A stretch of DNA of 64,000 bases from Candidatus Lloydbacteria bacterium RIFCSPHIGHO2_02_FULL_50_18 (GTDB lineage: Bacteria > Patescibacteriota > Minisyncoccia > Phycocordibacterales > UBA6899), in contig MHLM01000014.1 in assembly GCA_001821395.1 (NCBI GenBank), forward strand, positions 174,381 to 238,380, written 5' to 3'. The translations under genes were made by a program, and so were the position numbers. Positions 3,050-21,083 of the stretch are shown piece by piece. Positions within the stretch are counted from its first letter, which is position 1; every line of letters begins with the position of its first letter. The notes under the pieces were generated by a model. That model had not been told where the DNA came from. It saw only the letters and a list, made by a program, of their open reading frames with translations, and ran no database searches.

Positions 3050-3156
3050 TTGAAAAAATATTTTACAAATAAAAGCACACGACGTGTTGCCTCCTCGCGT
3101 GTGAACAGTATCAATCATTATACTTTTAGGTAAAGTTAATTCTTTTGCATGTTGGG

Positions 3157-3189
3157 AACAATAATAAACCCCACGCATGATGCGTGGGG
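3157..3189 (-). terminator. intrinsic terminator for the minus-strand membrane protein gene
   Basis: 9-bp stem ccccacgca/tgcgtgggg with loop tga. On the minus strand the hairpin is followed by a T-rich tract (tttattattgtt). Confidence 0.55.
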
Positions 3190-3198
3190 TGCGATAAA

Positions 3199-3762
3199 CT
3201 ATATTTGCCTGCGGAGGATCAGGATGATCACTCCGCTTTGGATAAAAAAGAATGCGATCGGTGTGAGTGCGTATGCGATGGTCATCGAGGGGATCGCAAG
3301 TACACCGAGTGTTGCGGCAAGGAGTCCGTAGAGCCAGCCCCTAAGCGGTTCGTTGTGCGGGTCTTTCCAGAGGTTGATCAGCATCGGTATCGAACCAACG
3401 ATGTTCGCAACGACACTGATGGTGATCGCCACGTTTGCATTACCCGAGAAATACCACCCGACCAACGCCAGGATCACGAGTCCGAAGCAGAAGCTGTCGA
3501 GCTTCTTCCACTCGATCGTCACCTTTTTTACGCCGCAGAGGATGACGATGAGTCCGGTCCCTGCGAAGTAGACGTACATTTGCCGGACAATAGAGTCCTT
3601 CGCGATCATCCCTGCCAAAATGACTGCATCAACGATGAGCCATGAGAGCCACGTAGAGAGAGTTGGTCTCGACGTACCACTAAGGATGGAGCGAATGTAT
3701 GGGACGTATGCCCACACTACGGCGACTATCGCCAGTGCGGTAAAGAAAGAAACACGGTCCAT
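3199..3762 (-). CDS. hypothetical polytopic membrane protein
   Basis: Start chosen at internal ATG (MDRVSFF...) preceded by an AGGGAG-like RBS. At least five hydrophobic segments. The ORF-track upstream extension lacks an RBS. Confidence 0.5.
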   Translation of the reverse strand: MDRVSFFTALAIVAVVWAYVPYIRSILSGTSRPTLSTWLSWLIVDAVILAGMIAKDSIVRQMYVYFAGTGLIVILCGVKKVTIEWKKLDSFCFGLVILALVGWYFSGNANVAITISVVANIVGSIPMLINLWKDPHNEPLRGWLYGLLAATLGVLAIPSMTIAYALTPIAFFFIQSGVIILILRRQI

Positions 3763-3906
3763 AGAGATTCTCCCTAGGTGTTGTTGTGAAGGTGCGTTTG
3801 CTTGACAATGCATTATGTAAACGAAAAAGTCAAACATGAAAAAGTATCTGCAGGCGGACCCTGAAAGAAGAAACGCCCTGCGCATGAAGCGCAGGGCGAG
3901 GATCGA

Positions 3907-4161
3907 TCAATAAGACGTATCACCTTTTGAATTGAGAGAAACATATTCCGGGATGAGTCCCGTTTTGCGCAGCTCTCGCGAGAGTTCCTTGAGGGTGGCG
4001 CCGCTTGCGCGCGCGAGCTCCGTCTTCTTTCCGGCTTCGTCGATCTGATAGATGACGCCTTTTTTGCCGCTACTGCCCTTGCGTCCGCCGCCGATAGCGC
4101 CGTTGCCTTTGCGTTTTGCGGTGATGGTCACAATTCTACCCAACATTGCTCGTTCGCGCAT
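3907..4161 (-). CDS. small basic hypothetical protein (Gly/Lys-rich)
   Basis: 84 aa, 'KRKGNGAIGGGRKGSSGKKG', no family recognised. Compact ORF sitting between two terminated genes. Confidence 0.35.
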   Translation of the reverse strand: MRERAMLGRIVTITAKRKGNGAIGGGRKGSSGKKGVIYQIDEAGKKTELARASGATLKELSRELRKTGLIPEYVSLNSKGDTSY

Positions 4162-4304
4162 TGATTACTCCTTGGTTGTACAGACTTGCTAGCCCCCATG
4201 TTACGTATTTTTGATGATTTGTCGAGCATTTCCATCAGGTGAACGTGCAGCAGAGAAGCATGCCGAAGACATACGGCAAACATATTTTTAGATGCTCGTG
4301 AATG

Positions 4305-14748: not shown

Positions 14749-14821
14749 TAATTTGACAAAAGCATAAAAAGAAGTCTAACTAGTACTAGAAGTTGTACTC
14801 GTTGACGATGATGTGAATTTG

Positions 14822-14864
14822 CCATAGCCAAAAGTCCTTTGATGAGCTCAGGATTTCTGGCTGT
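14822..14864 (+). repeat. 43-nt conserved hairpin element, copy A (upstream of the 14921 gene)
   Basis: 'catagccaaaagtcctttgatgagctcaggatttctggctgtg' is identical to 15706-15748. It folds as a roughly 17-bp stem with a 13-nt loop. Confidence 0.8.
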
Positions 14865-14920
14865 GGCAAATCTCAATTCCGAGAAACCAGAGCAGTGCGA
14901 CCTCATTTGAGGGAGCAATT

Positions 14921-15529
14921 TTGAAAAGGAGACCCATCATGGGGAAACTTATCACAGAGACACCGTACTCGGAGATTACTGCAACGATGGAGTTGCTCGA
15001 TTCTTTTGGTGTGTCACGGGAAGATCTGACTCGGTTCAGGAAGGCTTCGTGGGAATTGAAGACGAGGGTGGCTGGCCTCATCATCCATGGCGTCTCTCAC
15101 AGCGCCACAATATCCGTCGACTACAATATGCCTCTCAAGGCAATGATTGTCTCCGGGCTTTACGATTGGGTGAACAAGAATATCACTGAAGAACACTTCC
15201 CGATTGCGGAAAGTGGAGTGGCAAATATCACGGTTGAGCTGGTGCAGTTTGGTCGAAAGATTTTATTCGATGATGCCGTCGCCGAATTGCGTCGTCGCGA
15301 TTTACGCCCCGCAACCCTGGCCGAGCTCCTTGCGTTCGGTAATGCGTTCCCCATGGAGCAGTGTAGGTACCCTATTGTGGCGCTTGGCTCCGATGCGATC
15401 GTCGACCGCCTTCGGTACGTCGCATTTATCAGCAAAGAGGGTTCGGATCGGGTTCTCGACCTCGAGTCTACGTTCGGTTATTTTTTTGGCAACGCTCGTT
15501 TTCTTGCCGTGTGCAACAAAGATCTATGA
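14921..15529 (+). CDS. hypothetical protein, paralog A of the tandem cassette pair
   Basis: 202 aa. Shares faint motifs with the 15820 protein ('YDWVNK' vs 'YPDWVKQ'; C-terminal 'VLDLES...ARF' vs 'RLDLHW...AARF'). Confidence 0.5.
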   Translation: MKRRPIMGKLITETPYSEITATMELLDSFGVSREDLTRFRKASWELKTRVAGLIIHGVSHSATISVDYNMPLKAMIVSGLYDWVNKNITEEHFPIAESGVANITVELVQFGRKILFDDAVAELRRRDLRPATLAELLAFGNAFPMEQCRYPIVALGSDAIVDRLRYVAFISKEGSDRVLDLESTFGYFFGNARFLAVCNKDL

Positions 15530-15569
15530 TCCTCGTTTCTCGGGTCTACTTTGTAACCTATTGACCGTC

Positions 15570-15612
15570 AATATCGTCCCGCGCATGTATGCAAATACAG
15601 CGCGGGACTTTT
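15570..15612 (+). terminator. conserved GNRA-tetraloop terminator, copy 1
   Basis: 'cccgcgc a tgtat GCAA ataca gcgcggg' then acttttaaatt; about 40 nt nearly identical to 16468-16511. Confidence 0.65.
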
Positions 15613-15705
15613 AAATTGACAAAAGTGCCACTTGGATTAGGTTGAAGGTATTGTTCTTGGTTTTTTAATGCAGGCGTGCATTCCTGTATGGGGTAGGTCG
15701 GTGGT

Positions 15706-15748
15706 CATAGCCAAAAGTCCTTTGATGAGCTCAGGATTTCTGGCTGTG
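15706..15748 (+). repeat. 43-nt conserved hairpin element, copy B (upstream of the 15820 gene)
   Basis: Identical 43-mer. Flanking bases extend the stem with a compensatory change relative to copy A (C-G in A, T-A in B). Confidence 0.8.
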
Positions 15749-15819
15749 ACCAACGTAGGCCACAGCTCCACCTCGGATGAGAGGAAAATCTACGCACAAT
15801 TGAGTGCAAGGAGAATGAT

Positions 15820-16419
15820 ATGATTAGAGAAAGATTGGCGATCGCTGATGTCACTGGTGGGCAATTGAATGCCATCGTCAAAAAGATCAAAAAAGCTGGC
15901 GGAGTTGATGGCGTCCAACGCTTCTTGTCCGACGAACTCATCGTCACCGCAAAGGAAGACACCATCATCCGCATCACGCGTCCGGTCAAACCGACCTACC
16001 CCGACTGGGTGAAACAGGTGATGCACCCAGAACTAGAAGACGTGGGTCCAGGCGAGTACGATCTCGCTTCCATCGACCTATGGCTCGATGAGCGACAGAT
16101 GAAGAGTAGTGACTACATGAGACAGATGGGGCGGGTCTACGGAAGCGTTATCTACGAAGATTTCAAACACAACGACAGACTTAAAACCTGTCTCGGCCTC
16201 CGAGATGCCGAGGAGATCCAAAAGAAGGGCCCCGCCGTTTTCCGCCGATGCTTCGGCAAGAAAGCGTTGTGCTTTTGGAAGTCGGTTGTCTGCAGCACGG
16301 ATCTTAATCTCCACGTCCCGTGTATCTACGTGTTAAATGATGATGTGGTGATAAGTTGGTACCGGCTCGACCTTCACTGGTCGAGCGACGACAACCTTGC
16401 GGCGCGTTTCACAAGTTAG
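15820..16419 (+). CDS. hypothetical protein, paralog B of the tandem cassette pair
   Basis: 199 aa. Good RBS (AAGGAGAAtgat-ATG). Confidence 0.5.
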   Translation: MIRERLAIADVTGGQLNAIVKKIKKAGGVDGVQRFLSDELIVTAKEDTIIRITRPVKPTYPDWVKQVMHPELEDVGPGEYDLASIDLWLDERQMKSSDYMRQMGRVYGSVIYEDFKHNDRLKTCLGLRDAEEIQKKGPAVFRRCFGKKALCFWKSVVCSTDLNLHVPCIYVLNDDVVISWYRLDLHWSSDDNLAARFTS

Positions 16420-16467
16420 TTCTTTGGGTTCGGTCACTATGTCTTTGTGATATTCTGACCCTCGATA

Positions 16468-16511
16468 TCGCCCCGCGCATGTATGCAAATACACCGCGGG
16501 GCTTTTTGTTT
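16468..16511 (+). terminator. conserved GNRA-tetraloop terminator, copy 2
   Basis: 'ccccgcgc a tgtat GCAA ataca ccgcgggg' then ctttttgttttt. Confidence 0.65.
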
Positions 16512-18677: not shown

Positions 18678-20318
18678 ATGAGCACGAAAAAAACTGATGC
18701 TCCGCACACTGATGCGAAGCCTGAGTCAAGTGGTCATGGTTTTTGCCCGAAGTGTGGGAATGGCTGGCTCGTAAAGGACGGTCAGACCACGAACACTGGT
18801 AGTGAAAAACAGCGCTACCGATGCAGTGCATGTGCGCATAAGACAACTGCACCTTCCGCAGAACATCCTGCCGACGTAGTGACGATGCGCAGTAGTTTGC
18901 CGACGGCAAAACGCTACATCATCACCGCTGCACAAAATGCGACGCCAATTCATAGGCCGACGTGGCTATCACTTCTTTGTGCGGCAAAGTATTACGATGC
19001 CGAACTCGTTGTGATCCCCGGTCGGTATAAGAATCCGACCAGTCAGTGGACGCAAAACAATAAGGACCATGAATGGTGGGATGAGGCGGTTGTGCCATAT
19101 TTGTGCAACGGATGGATCGCGCTCAATGACCGACTGTTGATCCTTGGTGACGTGAAGGTACAGTGGGCGGCACGTCAGCCGCTTGTTGGACTGGACGCAC
19201 TCACCAAAGACAAGAGCGGCATTGTTGGCCACGGCTCTCGCGGAATGCGATCCGTTGCAACTCCGCAACACAAGCATCCCAAGATCATGATGACGACGGG
19301 AGCATGTACGGTGCGCAATTACACCGATACGAAGCAAGGCAAGCTCGGAAAGTTCGCTCACTGCCTCGGTGCTTTGATCGTTGAAGTGGACATCGATGAT
19401 GTATTTCACATCCGTCAGTTGAATGCGACCAAGCAGGGGAGTTTCATTGATCTTGATATGGAATTCACTCCCGAAGGAGCCCGTCCCGCGAAGCCCGCCC
19501 TGTCGATCTCGATGGGTGATATTCACCAGCGATGGATCTTACCTGATGTGGTCAAGGCAACCTTTACTGCACCGGATAGTCTGGTGAAGATGATCAATCC
19601 GCGTTATCTCTTTTGGCATGACACGGTTGATTTTCATTCGCGCAACCATCATCATCAAGATGATTGGATCACCAAATTCGCAAAGTGGAAATATGGGATC
19701 GAGTGTGTGCGCACTGAGGTTGAGGATGCGATACGTTTTGTGAATAAGCACACGACGCAAGGGCGCAAGTCGGTTGTCGTATCGAGCAATCATGATCGTG
19801 CGATCGCGCGGTGGTTGAAGGATGCTGATTTCCGAAATGATCCGGTGAATGCGCAGTTCTATCTCGAATGTGCGTATCGCGCAACGGAGAGTGCGCGACT
19901 GACCGAGGGCGGCGTCGCGTTTGATGACCCCTATGTGTCCTATGCACAAATGTTTGCGAAACCAAACGTGCAGTTCTTAAAGCCCGGGGAAAGCAAGGTG
20001 CTTGCTCAGGTCGAGTATGGATTCCACGGTGACATTGGTCCCAATGGTTCGCGCGGGACGACCAAGAATCTCTCCAAGCTTGGAGTGAAGGTCACGAAGG
20101 GGCACAGCCACACGGCCGAGATCATCGACGGATGCTACAGTGCCGGCAAATCGACCGGCATGCTCGAGTATGAGCATGGCGGACCGAGTAGCCACACCAA
20201 CTCCCACGTTGTGCAGTATGCCAACGGTAAGCGAGCAATTATCATCATCATCAATGGACGGTATTGCTTGAAGCGTCCAAAGAGGGTAATGGTGAAATTA
20301 TCTACGAAGCCTGTTTGA
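18678..20318 (+). CDS. zinc-ribbon / calcineurin-like metallophosphoesterase fusion protein
   Basis: 546 aa. N-terminal 'CPKCGNG...RYRCSACAHK' is a transposase-type (IS1/IS1595-like) Zn ribbon. The C-terminal roughly 270 aa carry ordered MPE motifs: 'GDIH', 'HDTVDFH', 'SNHD' (GNHD), 'GFHGD', 'GHSH' (GHxH). Strong RBS AAAGGAG. Confidence 0.6.
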   Translation: MSTKKTDAPHTDAKPESSGHGFCPKCGNGWLVKDGQTTNTGSEKQRYRCSACAHKTTAPSAEHPADVVTMRSSLPTAKRYIITAAQNATPIHRPTWLSLLCAAKYYDAELVVIPGRYKNPTSQWTQNNKDHEWWDEAVVPYLCNGWIALNDRLLILGDVKVQWAARQPLVGLDALTKDKSGIVGHGSRGMRSVATPQHKHPKIMMTTGACTVRNYTDTKQGKLGKFAHCLGALIVEVDIDDVFHIRQLNATKQGSFIDLDMEFTPEGARPAKPALSISMGDIHQRWILPDVVKATFTAPDSLVKMINPRYLFWHDTVDFHSRNHHHQDDWITKFAKWKYGIECVRTEVEDAIRFVNKHTTQGRKSVVVSSNHDRAIARWLKDADFRNDPVNAQFYLECAYRATESARLTEGGVAFDDPYVSYAQMFAKPNVQFLKPGESKVLAQVEYGFHGDIGPNGSRGTTKNLSKLGVKVTKGHSHTAEIIDGCYSAGKSTGMLEYEHGGPSSHTNSHVVQYANGKRAIIIIINGRYCLKRPKRVMVKLSTKPV

Positions 20319-20385: not shown

Positions 20386-20415
20386 TTTGTAAAAAAACAC
20401 CCGCACGGGGGTGTT
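20386..20415 (-). terminator. intrinsic terminator for the ClpP-like gene
   Basis: Stem aacaccc/gggtgtt; on the minus strand it is followed by TTTTTTT. Confidence 0.6.
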
Positions 20416-21083
20416 TATTGGTATTGCGCGACTTCGTCAGCGAGTCCGATCTCAACCGCTTCTTCCGGGGTGATGAACCAGTCGAACTTCATTTTTTCTT
20501 TGAGTCGGCTACGTGACCATGGTTTTTTCCCGAGGGCTTTAGCTTTCTCATTGATCTTATAAAGGTAGATGTCCTCCATGCTCGTGTTGATACGGTCAGA
20601 TTCCTGTGCGTGTTTCTGAAAATCTTTTGAGTGTCCGTAGAAGCCGTCGTTTCCATAGTGGAGGAGCATCGTCGTGTTCGGTGCGATCACGCGCTTGTCC
20701 CCAGCTTGATAAATGACGGTTGCCGCACTCATGAGGTAGCCGTACGCTTCGATGGTGATGTGGTGTCCAGATCGTCTGATGCGGTCATAAATACCAAACA
20801 TGTGATATGCATCACCTCCCGGATTGTTGATCTCAATGGTGATGCCAGGGTCCTGTCCTTCTAGGACCGGCCATCGTTCAAGTACCGAGAGTCCGGTTGC
20901 GAGTCGTTTCCACATGTCCGCATCGACGCCGGATTCACCGGAGTCAATGTCTACGGTGGCGCTTGCGAGAATGATCCGCCTTGTCGCGGGATTCACTCCA
21001 TATTCAAAAAAGAGTTTCAGCTCATCATCTTTTGTGAGCGGCTTATTAAGAGACTTAGCGAGCGGTTTGCGTCGTTCTGTCAT
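20415..21083 (-). CDS. ClpP-family serine protease (S14), stand-alone
   Basis: 222 aa. 'INNPGGD', 'GYLMSAATVIY' (catalytic Ser), 'MLLHYGN' (His), C-terminal 'ITPEEAVEIGLADEV'. N-terminal extension is atypical. No clpX adjacent. Confidence 0.7.
   Translation of the reverse strand: MTERRKPLAKSLNKPLTKDDELKLFFEYGVNPATRRIILASATVDIDSGESGVDADMWKRLATGLSVLERWPVLEGQDPGITIEINNPGGDAYHMFGIYDRIRRSGHHITIEAYGYLMSAATVIYQAGDKRVIAPNTTMLLHYGNDGFYGHSKDFQKHAQESDRINTSMEDIYLYKINEKAKALGKKPWSRSRLKEKMKFDWFITPEEAVEIGLADEVAQYQ

Follow-up and report, generated by a model that had tools for sequence, protein, structure and literature searches.

Two tandem genes of the kind diversified by retroelements, with shared putative leader and terminator hairpins, in a Candidatus Lloydbacteria genome

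Introduction

The closest described relatives of the locus reported here are the target genes of diversity-generating retroelements (DGRs) in the cellular clade of Patescibacteria, or candidate phyla radiation (CPR; 'clade 2', Roux et al. 2021, PMC8144416). The DGRs of CPR bacteria are reported to have mostly single targets that adjoin the element, and remote targets are also documented (PMC5758913). Past the variable repeat (VR) of a target lies a target-site hairpin with a GC-rich stem of 7–10 bp and a 4-nt GRNA loop, 4–34 bp after the VR (Guo et al. 2011, PMC3240598). Here we report on two adjacent genes in a 64,000-nt (64-kb) stretch of Candidatus Lloydbacteria bacterium RIFCSPHIGHO2_02_FULL_50_18 (contig MHLM01000014.1, positions 174,381 to 238,380), the whole of which is called the window below. 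Each gene stands between a hairpin in its predicted mRNA leader and another hairpin behind it, and these flanks are far more alike than the genes that they enclose. Structured hairpins in mRNA leaders control stability or processing, examples being the 5′ stem-loops that protect mRNAs and the RNase III sites in leaders of phage T7 and of bacteria.

Our analysis indicates that the region probably consists of two independently transcribed genes for C-type-lectin-fold variable proteins of the CPR DGR class, which come from two old sub-families and are likely no longer diversified.

Results

Two units of one architecture encode proteins of one predicted fold

The preliminary description of this region, made from the sequence, reported two adjacent units, each with an identical 43-nt 5′ hairpin, an open reading frame (ORF) of ~200 aa and a near-identical terminator with a GNRA tetraloop; this architecture stands, with boundaries that were off by at most 1 base (Table 1). 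The 43-mer (CATAGCCAAAAGTCCTTTGATGAGCTCAGGATTTCTGGCTGTG) occurs exactly twice, and 100 shuffles of the sequence yielded zero matches with up to 3 mismatches allowed. A third block common to both units, TAAwTTGACAAAAG, begins at 14749 and at 15612 and contains a −35-like hexamer. The box of unit 1 was not called by a generic promoter scan, and it aligns with the TTGACA-16 nt-TATAAT promoter of an ortholog locus, L004 (L numbers denote related loci, P numbers proteins); from their sequence, we infer a promoter function for the boxes of both units.

The two ORFs are barely alike in sequence, as had been noted: BLASTP of ORF1 against ORF2 gave no significant similarity, and Pfam, PHROGs and PADLOC returned nothing for either. 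Pfam is also silent on verified DGR targets of the same family, and family libraries are therefore blind to it, although a full hidden Markov model (HMM) search found 7,722 representatives of 50%-identity clusters for the ORF1 family at E ≤ 1e-3, a family with no Pfam model. A hypothetical protein of Candidatus Lloydbacteria (CPR/Patescibacteria) has the same sequence as ORF2. Comparison of the ORF1 and ORF2 families profile to profile gave a probability of 88% (E 3e-6, 172 columns), and the AlphaFold2 models of both ORFs (predicted local distance difference test scores of 83 and 81) match C-type lectin/FGE folds and the DGR variable proteins TvpA, Mtd and TaqVP. Both models thus take the C-type-lectin fold, which disposes of the earlier proviso that structure prediction might reveal two unrelated proteins. 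On these predicted structures, ORF1 and ORF2 are distant homologs of one fold, from two old sub-families.

ORF1 is 38% identical to the target at L035 (E 8e-19) and 78% identical to its ortholog at L004, and ORF2 is 49% identical to the target at L009 (E 3e-43), whereas ORF1 and ORF2 are linked to each other only by profile and fold. The idea of a recent local duplicate that has since diverged was therefore abandoned. An N-terminal module of ~45 aa (MGxLITETPYSEITAT...) is common to proteins with differing bodies. The N-terminal modules of ORF1 and ORF2 are of different types: the ORF1 type is found in P0008–P0015 and P0024, and the ORF2 type at L010, where the N terminus of the protein is 39% identical to that of ORF2 and the body differs. 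P0024 is a hybrid that carries an ORF1-type N terminus on an ORF2-type body. The C termini across the homolog sets all follow a pattern of the type W..W....(R/P)(F/A)A.R.

Homologs of both proteins are DGR targets

At L001, a target (P0012), a template repeat (TR), bAvd and an RVT_1 reverse transcriptase (RT) all lie together. The last 123 nt of P0012 are repeated 330 nt downstream with 87% identity, and at each of the mismatches the downstream copy, the TR, has an adenine; two repeats that differ only at TR adenines constitute a DGR signature. Mismatches between VR and TR fall at TR adenines in 20/20 (L006) and 16/16 (L009) cases for homologs of the ORF2 family, both with Avd and RT adjacent, and in 20 of 22 for the ORF1-family homolog at L035. 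The VR and TR of L012, L024, L035 and L046 behave like those of L001, L006 and L009. A TR, Avd or RT adjoins the gene led by the 5′ hairpin in L009, L012, L024, L035, L046 and L027, and hairpin-led genes that lie away from the RT occur in other CPR metagenome-assembled genomes (MAGs; L010, L014, L015, L016, L042 and L044). L011 and L024 represent one gene from two assemblies, and 13 of their 14 differing positions lie inside the VR.

These relationships bear on the diversifying selection proposed in the preliminary description. The proteins do belong to a variation-prone class, but DGR adenine mutagenesis, the mechanism of hypervariation known for this family, is confined to the last ~43 codons and cannot explain the difference between ORF1 and ORF2.

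A further motif, GGTAnTAGGYGAAT, was observed just after the terminator of the target gene in 10 related loci. In CPR DGRs it seems to mark the 5′ part of the transcript that contains the TR; it corresponds to no Rfam family and is absent from the window.

The leader hairpin covaries and precedes one class of gene

Each copy of the 43-mer folds into a hairpin of 20–22 bp, with a dG of −31.5 kcal/mol in unit 1 (z −6.7) and −30.5 kcal/mol in unit 2 (z −6.5). Beyond the core, the two copies extend the helix with different bases, a first hint that it is the pairing that is conserved. The core, CATAGCC-AAAAG-N-CCT ... AGG-N′-TTTCT-GGCTRTG, makes a helix of ~20 bp with a conserved A·C mismatch. Searches with a two-arm pattern returned 7 loci in species-representative genomes, whose records are all named as MAGs of the Patescibacteria group (an unclassified Patescibacteria bin, Staskawiczbacteria and bins labelled Saccharibacteria), and a looser pattern returned 25 metagenome loci, giving a total of 32 other CPR loci with the hairpin; neither scan returned the window's own genome, for which the copy count is that of the 64-kb window. 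The pattern was found in none of the viral contigs scanned, and a phage origin of the hairpin was dropped for want of support. The hairpins at the equivalent place in L001, L008 and L009 share the base (TTTGCCrTAGC... or GGTGGTCATAGCC...) and differ at the apex, the lower stem of unit 2 (GGTGGTCATAGCC...) being almost the same as that in the leader of the DGR-linked target at L009.

The surroundings of the hairpin are as regular as the hairpin itself. A sigma-70-like promoter of the TTGACA/TATAAT type is recognisable ~50 nt upstream in most loci with enough upstream sequence, and a Shine-Dalgarno sequence follows 35–75 nt past the hairpin in loci that reach far enough; the spacing of the window copies to the promoter-like box and to the Shine-Dalgarno sequence matches that of the other loci. 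Wherever downstream sequence is available, it holds an ORF of ~200 aa with a VR-like C terminus, belonging to one of at least seven sub-families, the exceptions being the degraded loci L027 and L045.

A covariance model, R1, built from an alignment of 25 distinct hairpins, scores 69.6 bits for unit 1 (E 6e-17) and 71.2 bits for unit 2 (E 2e-17) and finds only these two copies in the 64-kb window, where the next best match has an E of 0.5. In the alignment, 98.6% of cells are paired and compensatory changes affect 6 of 20 pairs (40 cells); 0 of 500 shuffles reach the observed values, and sliding the partner destroys the covariation signal. The search pattern did not cover the four outermost pairs, which therefore give an unbiased test: their compositions are UA 15/CG 7, AU 11/GU 7/GC 4/UA 2/CG 1, GC 25 and UA 19/CG 6, so that three covary and one is invariant. 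At an inner position that the pattern left free, U-A, C-G, A-U and G-C all occur. The variable pairs include 16 G·U against 2 A·C by a manual count from the alignment table, and this excess, together with a site downstream of the promoter, favours an RNA of the sense strand. The earlier suggestion that the flanks are cis-elements under functional constraint, as opposed to neutral DNA, holds up.

The leader hairpin is not uniform among the relatives: L006 lacks it, and L001/L008 and L005 carry variants that R1 detects weakly or not at all. Rfam recovered only a tRNA in the window, the best matches of the hairpins being chance miRNA-precursor hits far below threshold, and nothing but rRNA, tRNA and tmRNA in seven related loci. 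No description of such a leader was found in the DGR literature searched, and the hairpin appears to be a conserved, undescribed element of this gene class. A hammerhead ribozyme core (loop GAUGAG) was also considered and dropped, as Rfam gave no hit and the loop differs from genome to genome.

A second pairing was observed in most of the other copies of the leader, within the 24 nt after the hairpin. The 5–6 nt just 3′ of the hairpin (B) can pair either with the 5 nt just 5′ of it (A), extending the helix, or with a downstream copy of that segment (C) across a 5-nt loop; this is seen in L011, L012, L015, L023, L025, L029, L031, L034, L036, L043, L045 and others, and not in the two window copies. 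Only one of the two helices, A:B or B:C, can form at a time, and from locus to locus their sequences change together; on sequence grounds, a conformational switch is possible.

The 3′ element

The 64-nt 3′ elements of the two units are 84% identical. Both contain the hairpin CCCGCGC-ATGTAT-GCAA-ATACA-GCGCGGG followed by a T-run, which is found in two copies in the 64 kb, lies 46–50 nt past the stop codon and folds in unit 1 with a dG of −25.9 kcal/mol (z −5.4). Related loci have a GC-rich hairpin with a T-run 45–70 nt past the stop codon; the loops are GAAA in L001 and L023, GCGA in L008 and GCAA in L009 and L043, and a GNRA/GRNA loop is present in only ~8 of ~20 of these loci. From its form we infer that the 3′ hairpin is at least an intrinsic terminator.

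Between stop codon and terminator hairpin, the 3′ untranslated regions (UTRs) of most hairpin-led genes hold 3–5 spaced copies of CTTGG, CTTTGG, CTTTGA or CTTAG (L009, L012, L015, L023, L024, L030, L035, L040, L042, L046 and others), and degenerate copies are present in the window. TTGG was observed 35 times in these 3′ UTRs against 7.5 expected (z 11). We found no description of such an array, which, as far as its sequence suggests, may be a protein-binding or DGR-recognition site.

Probable homogenisation of flanks within genomes and possible gain or loss of units

Within single genomes, the leaders of unrelated-looking proteins can be almost the same. L011 and L016 belong to one MAG, and their leaders show ~97% identity over a stretch of ~140 nt that runs from the −10 box to a little beyond the hairpin and takes in the otherwise variable loop; for L012 and L014, of another MAG, the identity is also ~97%, over ~160 nt that reach as far as the first codons; and a tandem pair at L005 has its own shared hairpin of different sequence. 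Loops that are free to differ between genomes and are yet identical within one suggest that, in addition to functional constraint, recombination or gene conversion homogenises the copies.

In the close relative L004, an ortholog of ORF1 stands in the same neighbourhood (a DsbA-like gene and a GTPase gene) and exactly the second unit is missing, a pattern that, at the level of sequence, would fit a unit gained or lost when the repeated flanks recombined. A manual alignment count of ORF1 against the L004 ortholog gives 73% identity over the last 86 nt and ~97% over the preceding ~340 nt; separate figures are 88% for 15062-15391, 92% for 15392-15440 and 70% for the N-terminal module, and the neighbouring DsbA-like and GTPase genes are 83–88% identical. 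The mosaic suggests either a recent recombination of the body or an unusually strong constraint. An adenine signature in the C-terminal differences was looked for and rejected, since A is involved at 8 of 24 differing sites, where chance would give about half, and many of the differences are synonymous. We also note that 15100-15440 of the window, the central body of ORF1, is ~97% identical to L004. The cassette-like character given to the units in the preliminary description is borne out to some degree, by the missing unit at L004 and by leaders homogenised within genomes; it does not extend to an array, and no integrase was found among the 20 neighbouring ORFs.

The tandem pair of ORF1-family genes at L005 (2598-4080) has as neighbours a type I restriction-modification system and the CD-NTase and Cap15 genes of a CBASS-like pair. 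These surroundings resemble a defence island, unlike the housekeeping context of the window.

Diversification status of the pair

Both 3′ ends of the ORFs were compared by blastn (word size 7) with the 64-kb window, and no TR was found, only the two 3′ elements matching each other. There is no RT, integrase or transposase among the 20 neighbouring ORFs, which are housekeeping genes such as those for AnmK, the SUF system, a DsbA-like protein and EngB. A protein search for RTs found more than 8000 in CPR, and none among the top 120 was named Lloydbacteria. The VR-equivalents of ORF1 and ORF2 have no DNA similarity to each other, and one TR could therefore not serve both.

The exact ORF2 sequence is present on 14 contigs, and the five places shown are five separate records (one from NCBI, one from ENA and three SRA runs). 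In a collection of 15 billion proteins, the 90% clusters of both ORFs contain no variant, in contrast to L011/L024 with their 13 differences in the VR. Related loci include three states of decay: L040, L045 and L027 (Table 1). Precedents for orphaning are L040, L045 and the hairpin-led gene at L016, for which the TR of the genome that carries it gave no match. Continued diversification of the pair by a DGR is doubtful; most likely the pair is, in this genome, either orphaned after loss of the DGR or served by a distant and rarely active element.

Table 1. Positions of features in the two units of the window and, where a locus is named, in related loci
Feature	Position	Strand	Remarks
Promoter-like box, unit 1 (TAATTTGACAAAAG)	14749..14762	+	−35-like TTGACA at 14753-14758; direct repeat D4 with 15612-15625
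5′ leader hairpin, unit 1	14815..14873	+	Invariant core 14823-14865 (43-mer); helix lengthened by TTTGC/GCAAA
ORF1, 196 aa, OGZ04717.1, hypothetical protein	14939..15529	+	ATG at 14939; N-terminal helical module and predicted C-type-lectin-fold body
VR-equivalent of ORF1	15392..15520	+	From protein alignment with the variable repeat of the L035 target
3′ element, unit 1	15549..15612	+	Conserved spacer, GC-rich GCAA-loop hairpin 15576-15608 and T-run; repeat D1
Promoter-like box, unit 2 (TAAATTGACAAAAG)	15612..15625	+	Repeat D4
5′ leader hairpin, unit 2	15698..15756	+	Core 15706-15748 (43-mer); helix lengthened by TGGT/ACCA
ORF2, 199 aa, OGZ04716.1, hypothetical protein	15820..16419	+	Different N-terminal module and predicted C-type-lectin-fold body
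VR-equivalent of ORF2	16285..16416	+	Mapped from the VR of L009
3′ element, unit 2	16443..16506	+	Spacer, GC-rich GCAA-loop hairpin 16470-16502 and T-run
Degenerate CTTGG-type repeat, CTTTGG	16423-16428		
Degenerate CTTGG-type repeat, CTTTGT	15549-15554 and 16443-16448		
Decay state, L040	~3956-4195 (oriented)		Target, then only the C-terminal ~50 residues of an RT
Decay state, L045	126-330 (oriented)		Leader and terminator kept around a 39-aa ORF
Decay state, L027	~3089-3770 (oriented)		Target broken by in-frame TGA; pseudogene or recoded stop possible
GGTAnTAGGYGAAT motif	L006 8821-8834; L009 8741-8754; L011 3041-3054; L023 2438-2451; L024 2640-2653; L043 4508-4521; others		

Assemblies and neighbouring genes

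L019, L020 and L021 are Logan assemblies of the window locus; all three of these independent short-read assemblies stop ~100 nt upstream of ORF2, at the repeated 43-mer, and the duplicated hairpin appears to fragment assemblies at this locus.

Further along the window, 18678-20318 (+) encodes a 546-aa protein with a zinc-ribbon-like N terminus (CxxC...CxxC), no Pfam hit and a match to PHROG 1745, 'DNA transfer protein' (E 8e-147). Beside it, 20415-21083 (−) encodes a ClpP-like protease matching phage head-maturation protease families. Standing amid housekeeping genes, the pair may be what is left of a prophage or a phage gene that was domesticated.

Discussion

We think it probable that each unit is a complete expression cassette for one variable protein: a sigma-70-like promoter would be followed by a leader with the hairpin of 20–22 bp, a Shine-Dalgarno sequence, the ORF of ~200 aa, a 3′ UTR of ~50 nt and a GC-rich tetraloop hairpin with a T-run. 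The last ~43 codons of each ORF would be the equivalent of a DGR variable repeat. The leader hairpin may act as RNA within the mRNA, most plausibly on stability, processing or translation, for instance as the site of a double-strand-specific RNase or of a protein, and the 3′ hairpin would be an intrinsic terminator that in DGR-linked relatives may double as the target-site hairpin promoting retrohoming. The flanks would then be more alike than the ORFs because they are constrained cis-elements homogenised within the genome by recombination or gene conversion, and the ORFs would differ because they are old paralogs of different sub-families, not a fresh duplicate.

Several points weigh against this interpretation. 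Both ORFs have lost residues that are invariant in their families, the tryptophans of the W..W motif being replaced, and they may have drifted from DGR service. Searches of the 64-kb window by tblastn with three CPR DGR RTs and two Avds found nothing, and it is homology, read from sequence, that connects this pair to DGRs. As the hairpins were gathered by sequence pattern, the conservation of the leader core is partly imposed, and in the Bordetella phage system the sequences upstream of the VR are dispensable (PMC3240598). The 3′ hairpin also departs from the published target hairpin, with a GCAA instead of a GRNA loop, a position 46–50 nt after the stop codon instead of 4–34 bp after the VR, and an A/T-rich inner part of the stem, and it may be nothing beyond a terminator.

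The strongest alternative is that the two genes are active remote targets, whose C-terminal segments are rewritten by an RT, an Avd and one or two TRs elsewhere in the genome, with the 3′ (perhaps also the 5′) hairpin marking them as targets. Remote targets are documented (PMC5758913), hairpin-led genes lie away from the RT in other CPR MAGs, and the end of ORF1 is less like L004 (73% over the last 86 nt) than the preceding part is (~97%). Two different TRs would be needed, however, for VR-equivalents that share no DNA similarity; the protein collection holds no variant even though ORF2 lies on 14 contigs; the differences between ORF1 and L004 are often synonymous third-position changes and are not enriched in adenine; and the targets of CPR DGRs are reported to be mostly single and adjacent (PMC5758913). 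We consider this alternative unlikely. Mobile gene cassettes are more improbable still. If the hairpins were the recombination sites of a cassette system, integron/attC-like or otherwise site-specific, the loss of exactly one unit between repeated flanks at L004, the gutted ORF left between leader and terminator at L045, the identical leaders before differing ORFs within genomes and the hybrid P0024 would all be accommodated. Yet the 20 window ORFs scanned include no integrase, transposase or RT, the hairpin lies between promoter and Shine-Dalgarno sequence and has sense-strand G·U pairs, attC R/L core boxes were not seen by eye, and there are two copies only and no array; ordinary homologous recombination between repeats of 43–64 nt explains the gain or loss of a unit equally well.

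That the units arose by recent tandem duplication, strong diversifying selection having driven the coding parts apart while the flanks stayed unchanged, would suit their adjacency, equal architecture and 100% identical hairpin core. We regard it as very improbable, as each ORF is far closer to genes of other CPR lineages than to its neighbour, the N-terminal modules belong to different, separately conserved module families, and the same leader precedes at least seven protein sub-families elsewhere. Least credible of all is a chance placement of generic genome repeats, REP-like hairpins or common terminators, beside two unrelated genes. Both elements are indeed hairpins, and the 3′ one resembles an ordinary intrinsic terminator; however, the 64 kb contain only two copies of each, a predicted fold is common to the two proteins, and in the 32 other loci, wherever downstream sequence is available, a gene of the variable-protein class or what remains of one follows the 5′ hairpin. 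The REP-like genome-wide repeat that the preliminary description had named as an alternative fails for the same reasons, R1 having two copies in the window and the hairpin standing elsewhere before this gene class or a remnant. A toxin–antitoxin or immunity pair was dropped separately, as no library supported it.

Two independently transcribed variable-protein genes of the CPR DGR class thus remain our preferred explanation, and with it two hypothetical proteins of Candidatus Lloydbacteria become recognisable members of that class, while the apparent paradox of flanks more conserved than genes is explained without a new mechanism. The covariation-supported hairpin, which is absent from Rfam and marks this gene class across the CPR loci found, could help in searching for DGR targets, among them the remote or orphaned genes overlooked by surveys that start from the RT, and the loci provide evidence that such targets outlive their retroelement and exchange leaders and N-terminal modules. 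A bolder proposal, which we hold only tentatively and think more likely wrong than right, is that the leader hairpin, the A:B/B:C pairing and the CTTGG-repeat 3′ UTR together make up a cis-acting RNA module that is specific to such genes in CPR DGRs, coupling expression to the retroelement or marking targets. If so, the known determinants of the system, all of them downstream, would be joined by an upstream one, and the identity of leaders within a genome would reflect co-evolution with the DGR machinery or gene conversion driven by it.

Comparison with known systems

Of the systems with which the locus can be compared, integron cassettes share with it the repeated imperfect hairpins that bracket unrelated-looking ORFs and the presence or absence of a unit between close relatives. 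They differ in that the window hairpin lies 5′ of the ORF, in a leader with its own promoter, and the 20 ORFs and the sites judged by eye supplied no integrase, no attC core sites and no array. Like structured mRNA leader hairpins, the window leader is a long, near-perfect helix of 20–22 bp with one conserved mismatch, placed between promoter and Shine-Dalgarno sequence, with covariation and a G·U bias. Unlike those hairpins, it is known here from sequence alone, and its stem sequence is itself strongly conserved across the loci found, which suggests a partner that would recognise it sequence-specifically.

The 3′ hairpin resembles the target-site hairpin or cruciform of DGRs (PMC3240598) in its GC-rich stem (CCCGCGC/GCGCGGG), its 4-nt loop starting with G and ending with A, its place downstream of the VR-equivalent and beyond the expected end of TR homology, and a stem sequence that varies between loci while the structure is kept; the GNRA-type loop, the greater distance, the extra A/T-rich inner helix and the T-run set it apart. 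The nearest match overall is with the DGR targets of the CPR clade itself (PMC8144416), which have in common with the window genes a small C-type-lectin-fold protein, a variable segment in the last ~43 codons, homologs that adjoin a TR, bAvd and RVT_1 with adenine mismatches, a downstream GC-rich tetraloop hairpin and a CPR host. The window pair differs from them in having no RT, Avd or TR in 64 kb and no variants in public data, and in comprising two dissimilar targets in tandem where mostly one adjacent target is reported (PMC5758913); a conserved 5′ leader hairpin is no part of published DGR anatomy. The locus is thus of a known kind, that of the DGR-type variable-protein genes of CPR bacteria, and the leader hairpin is the one feature of it that may be new.

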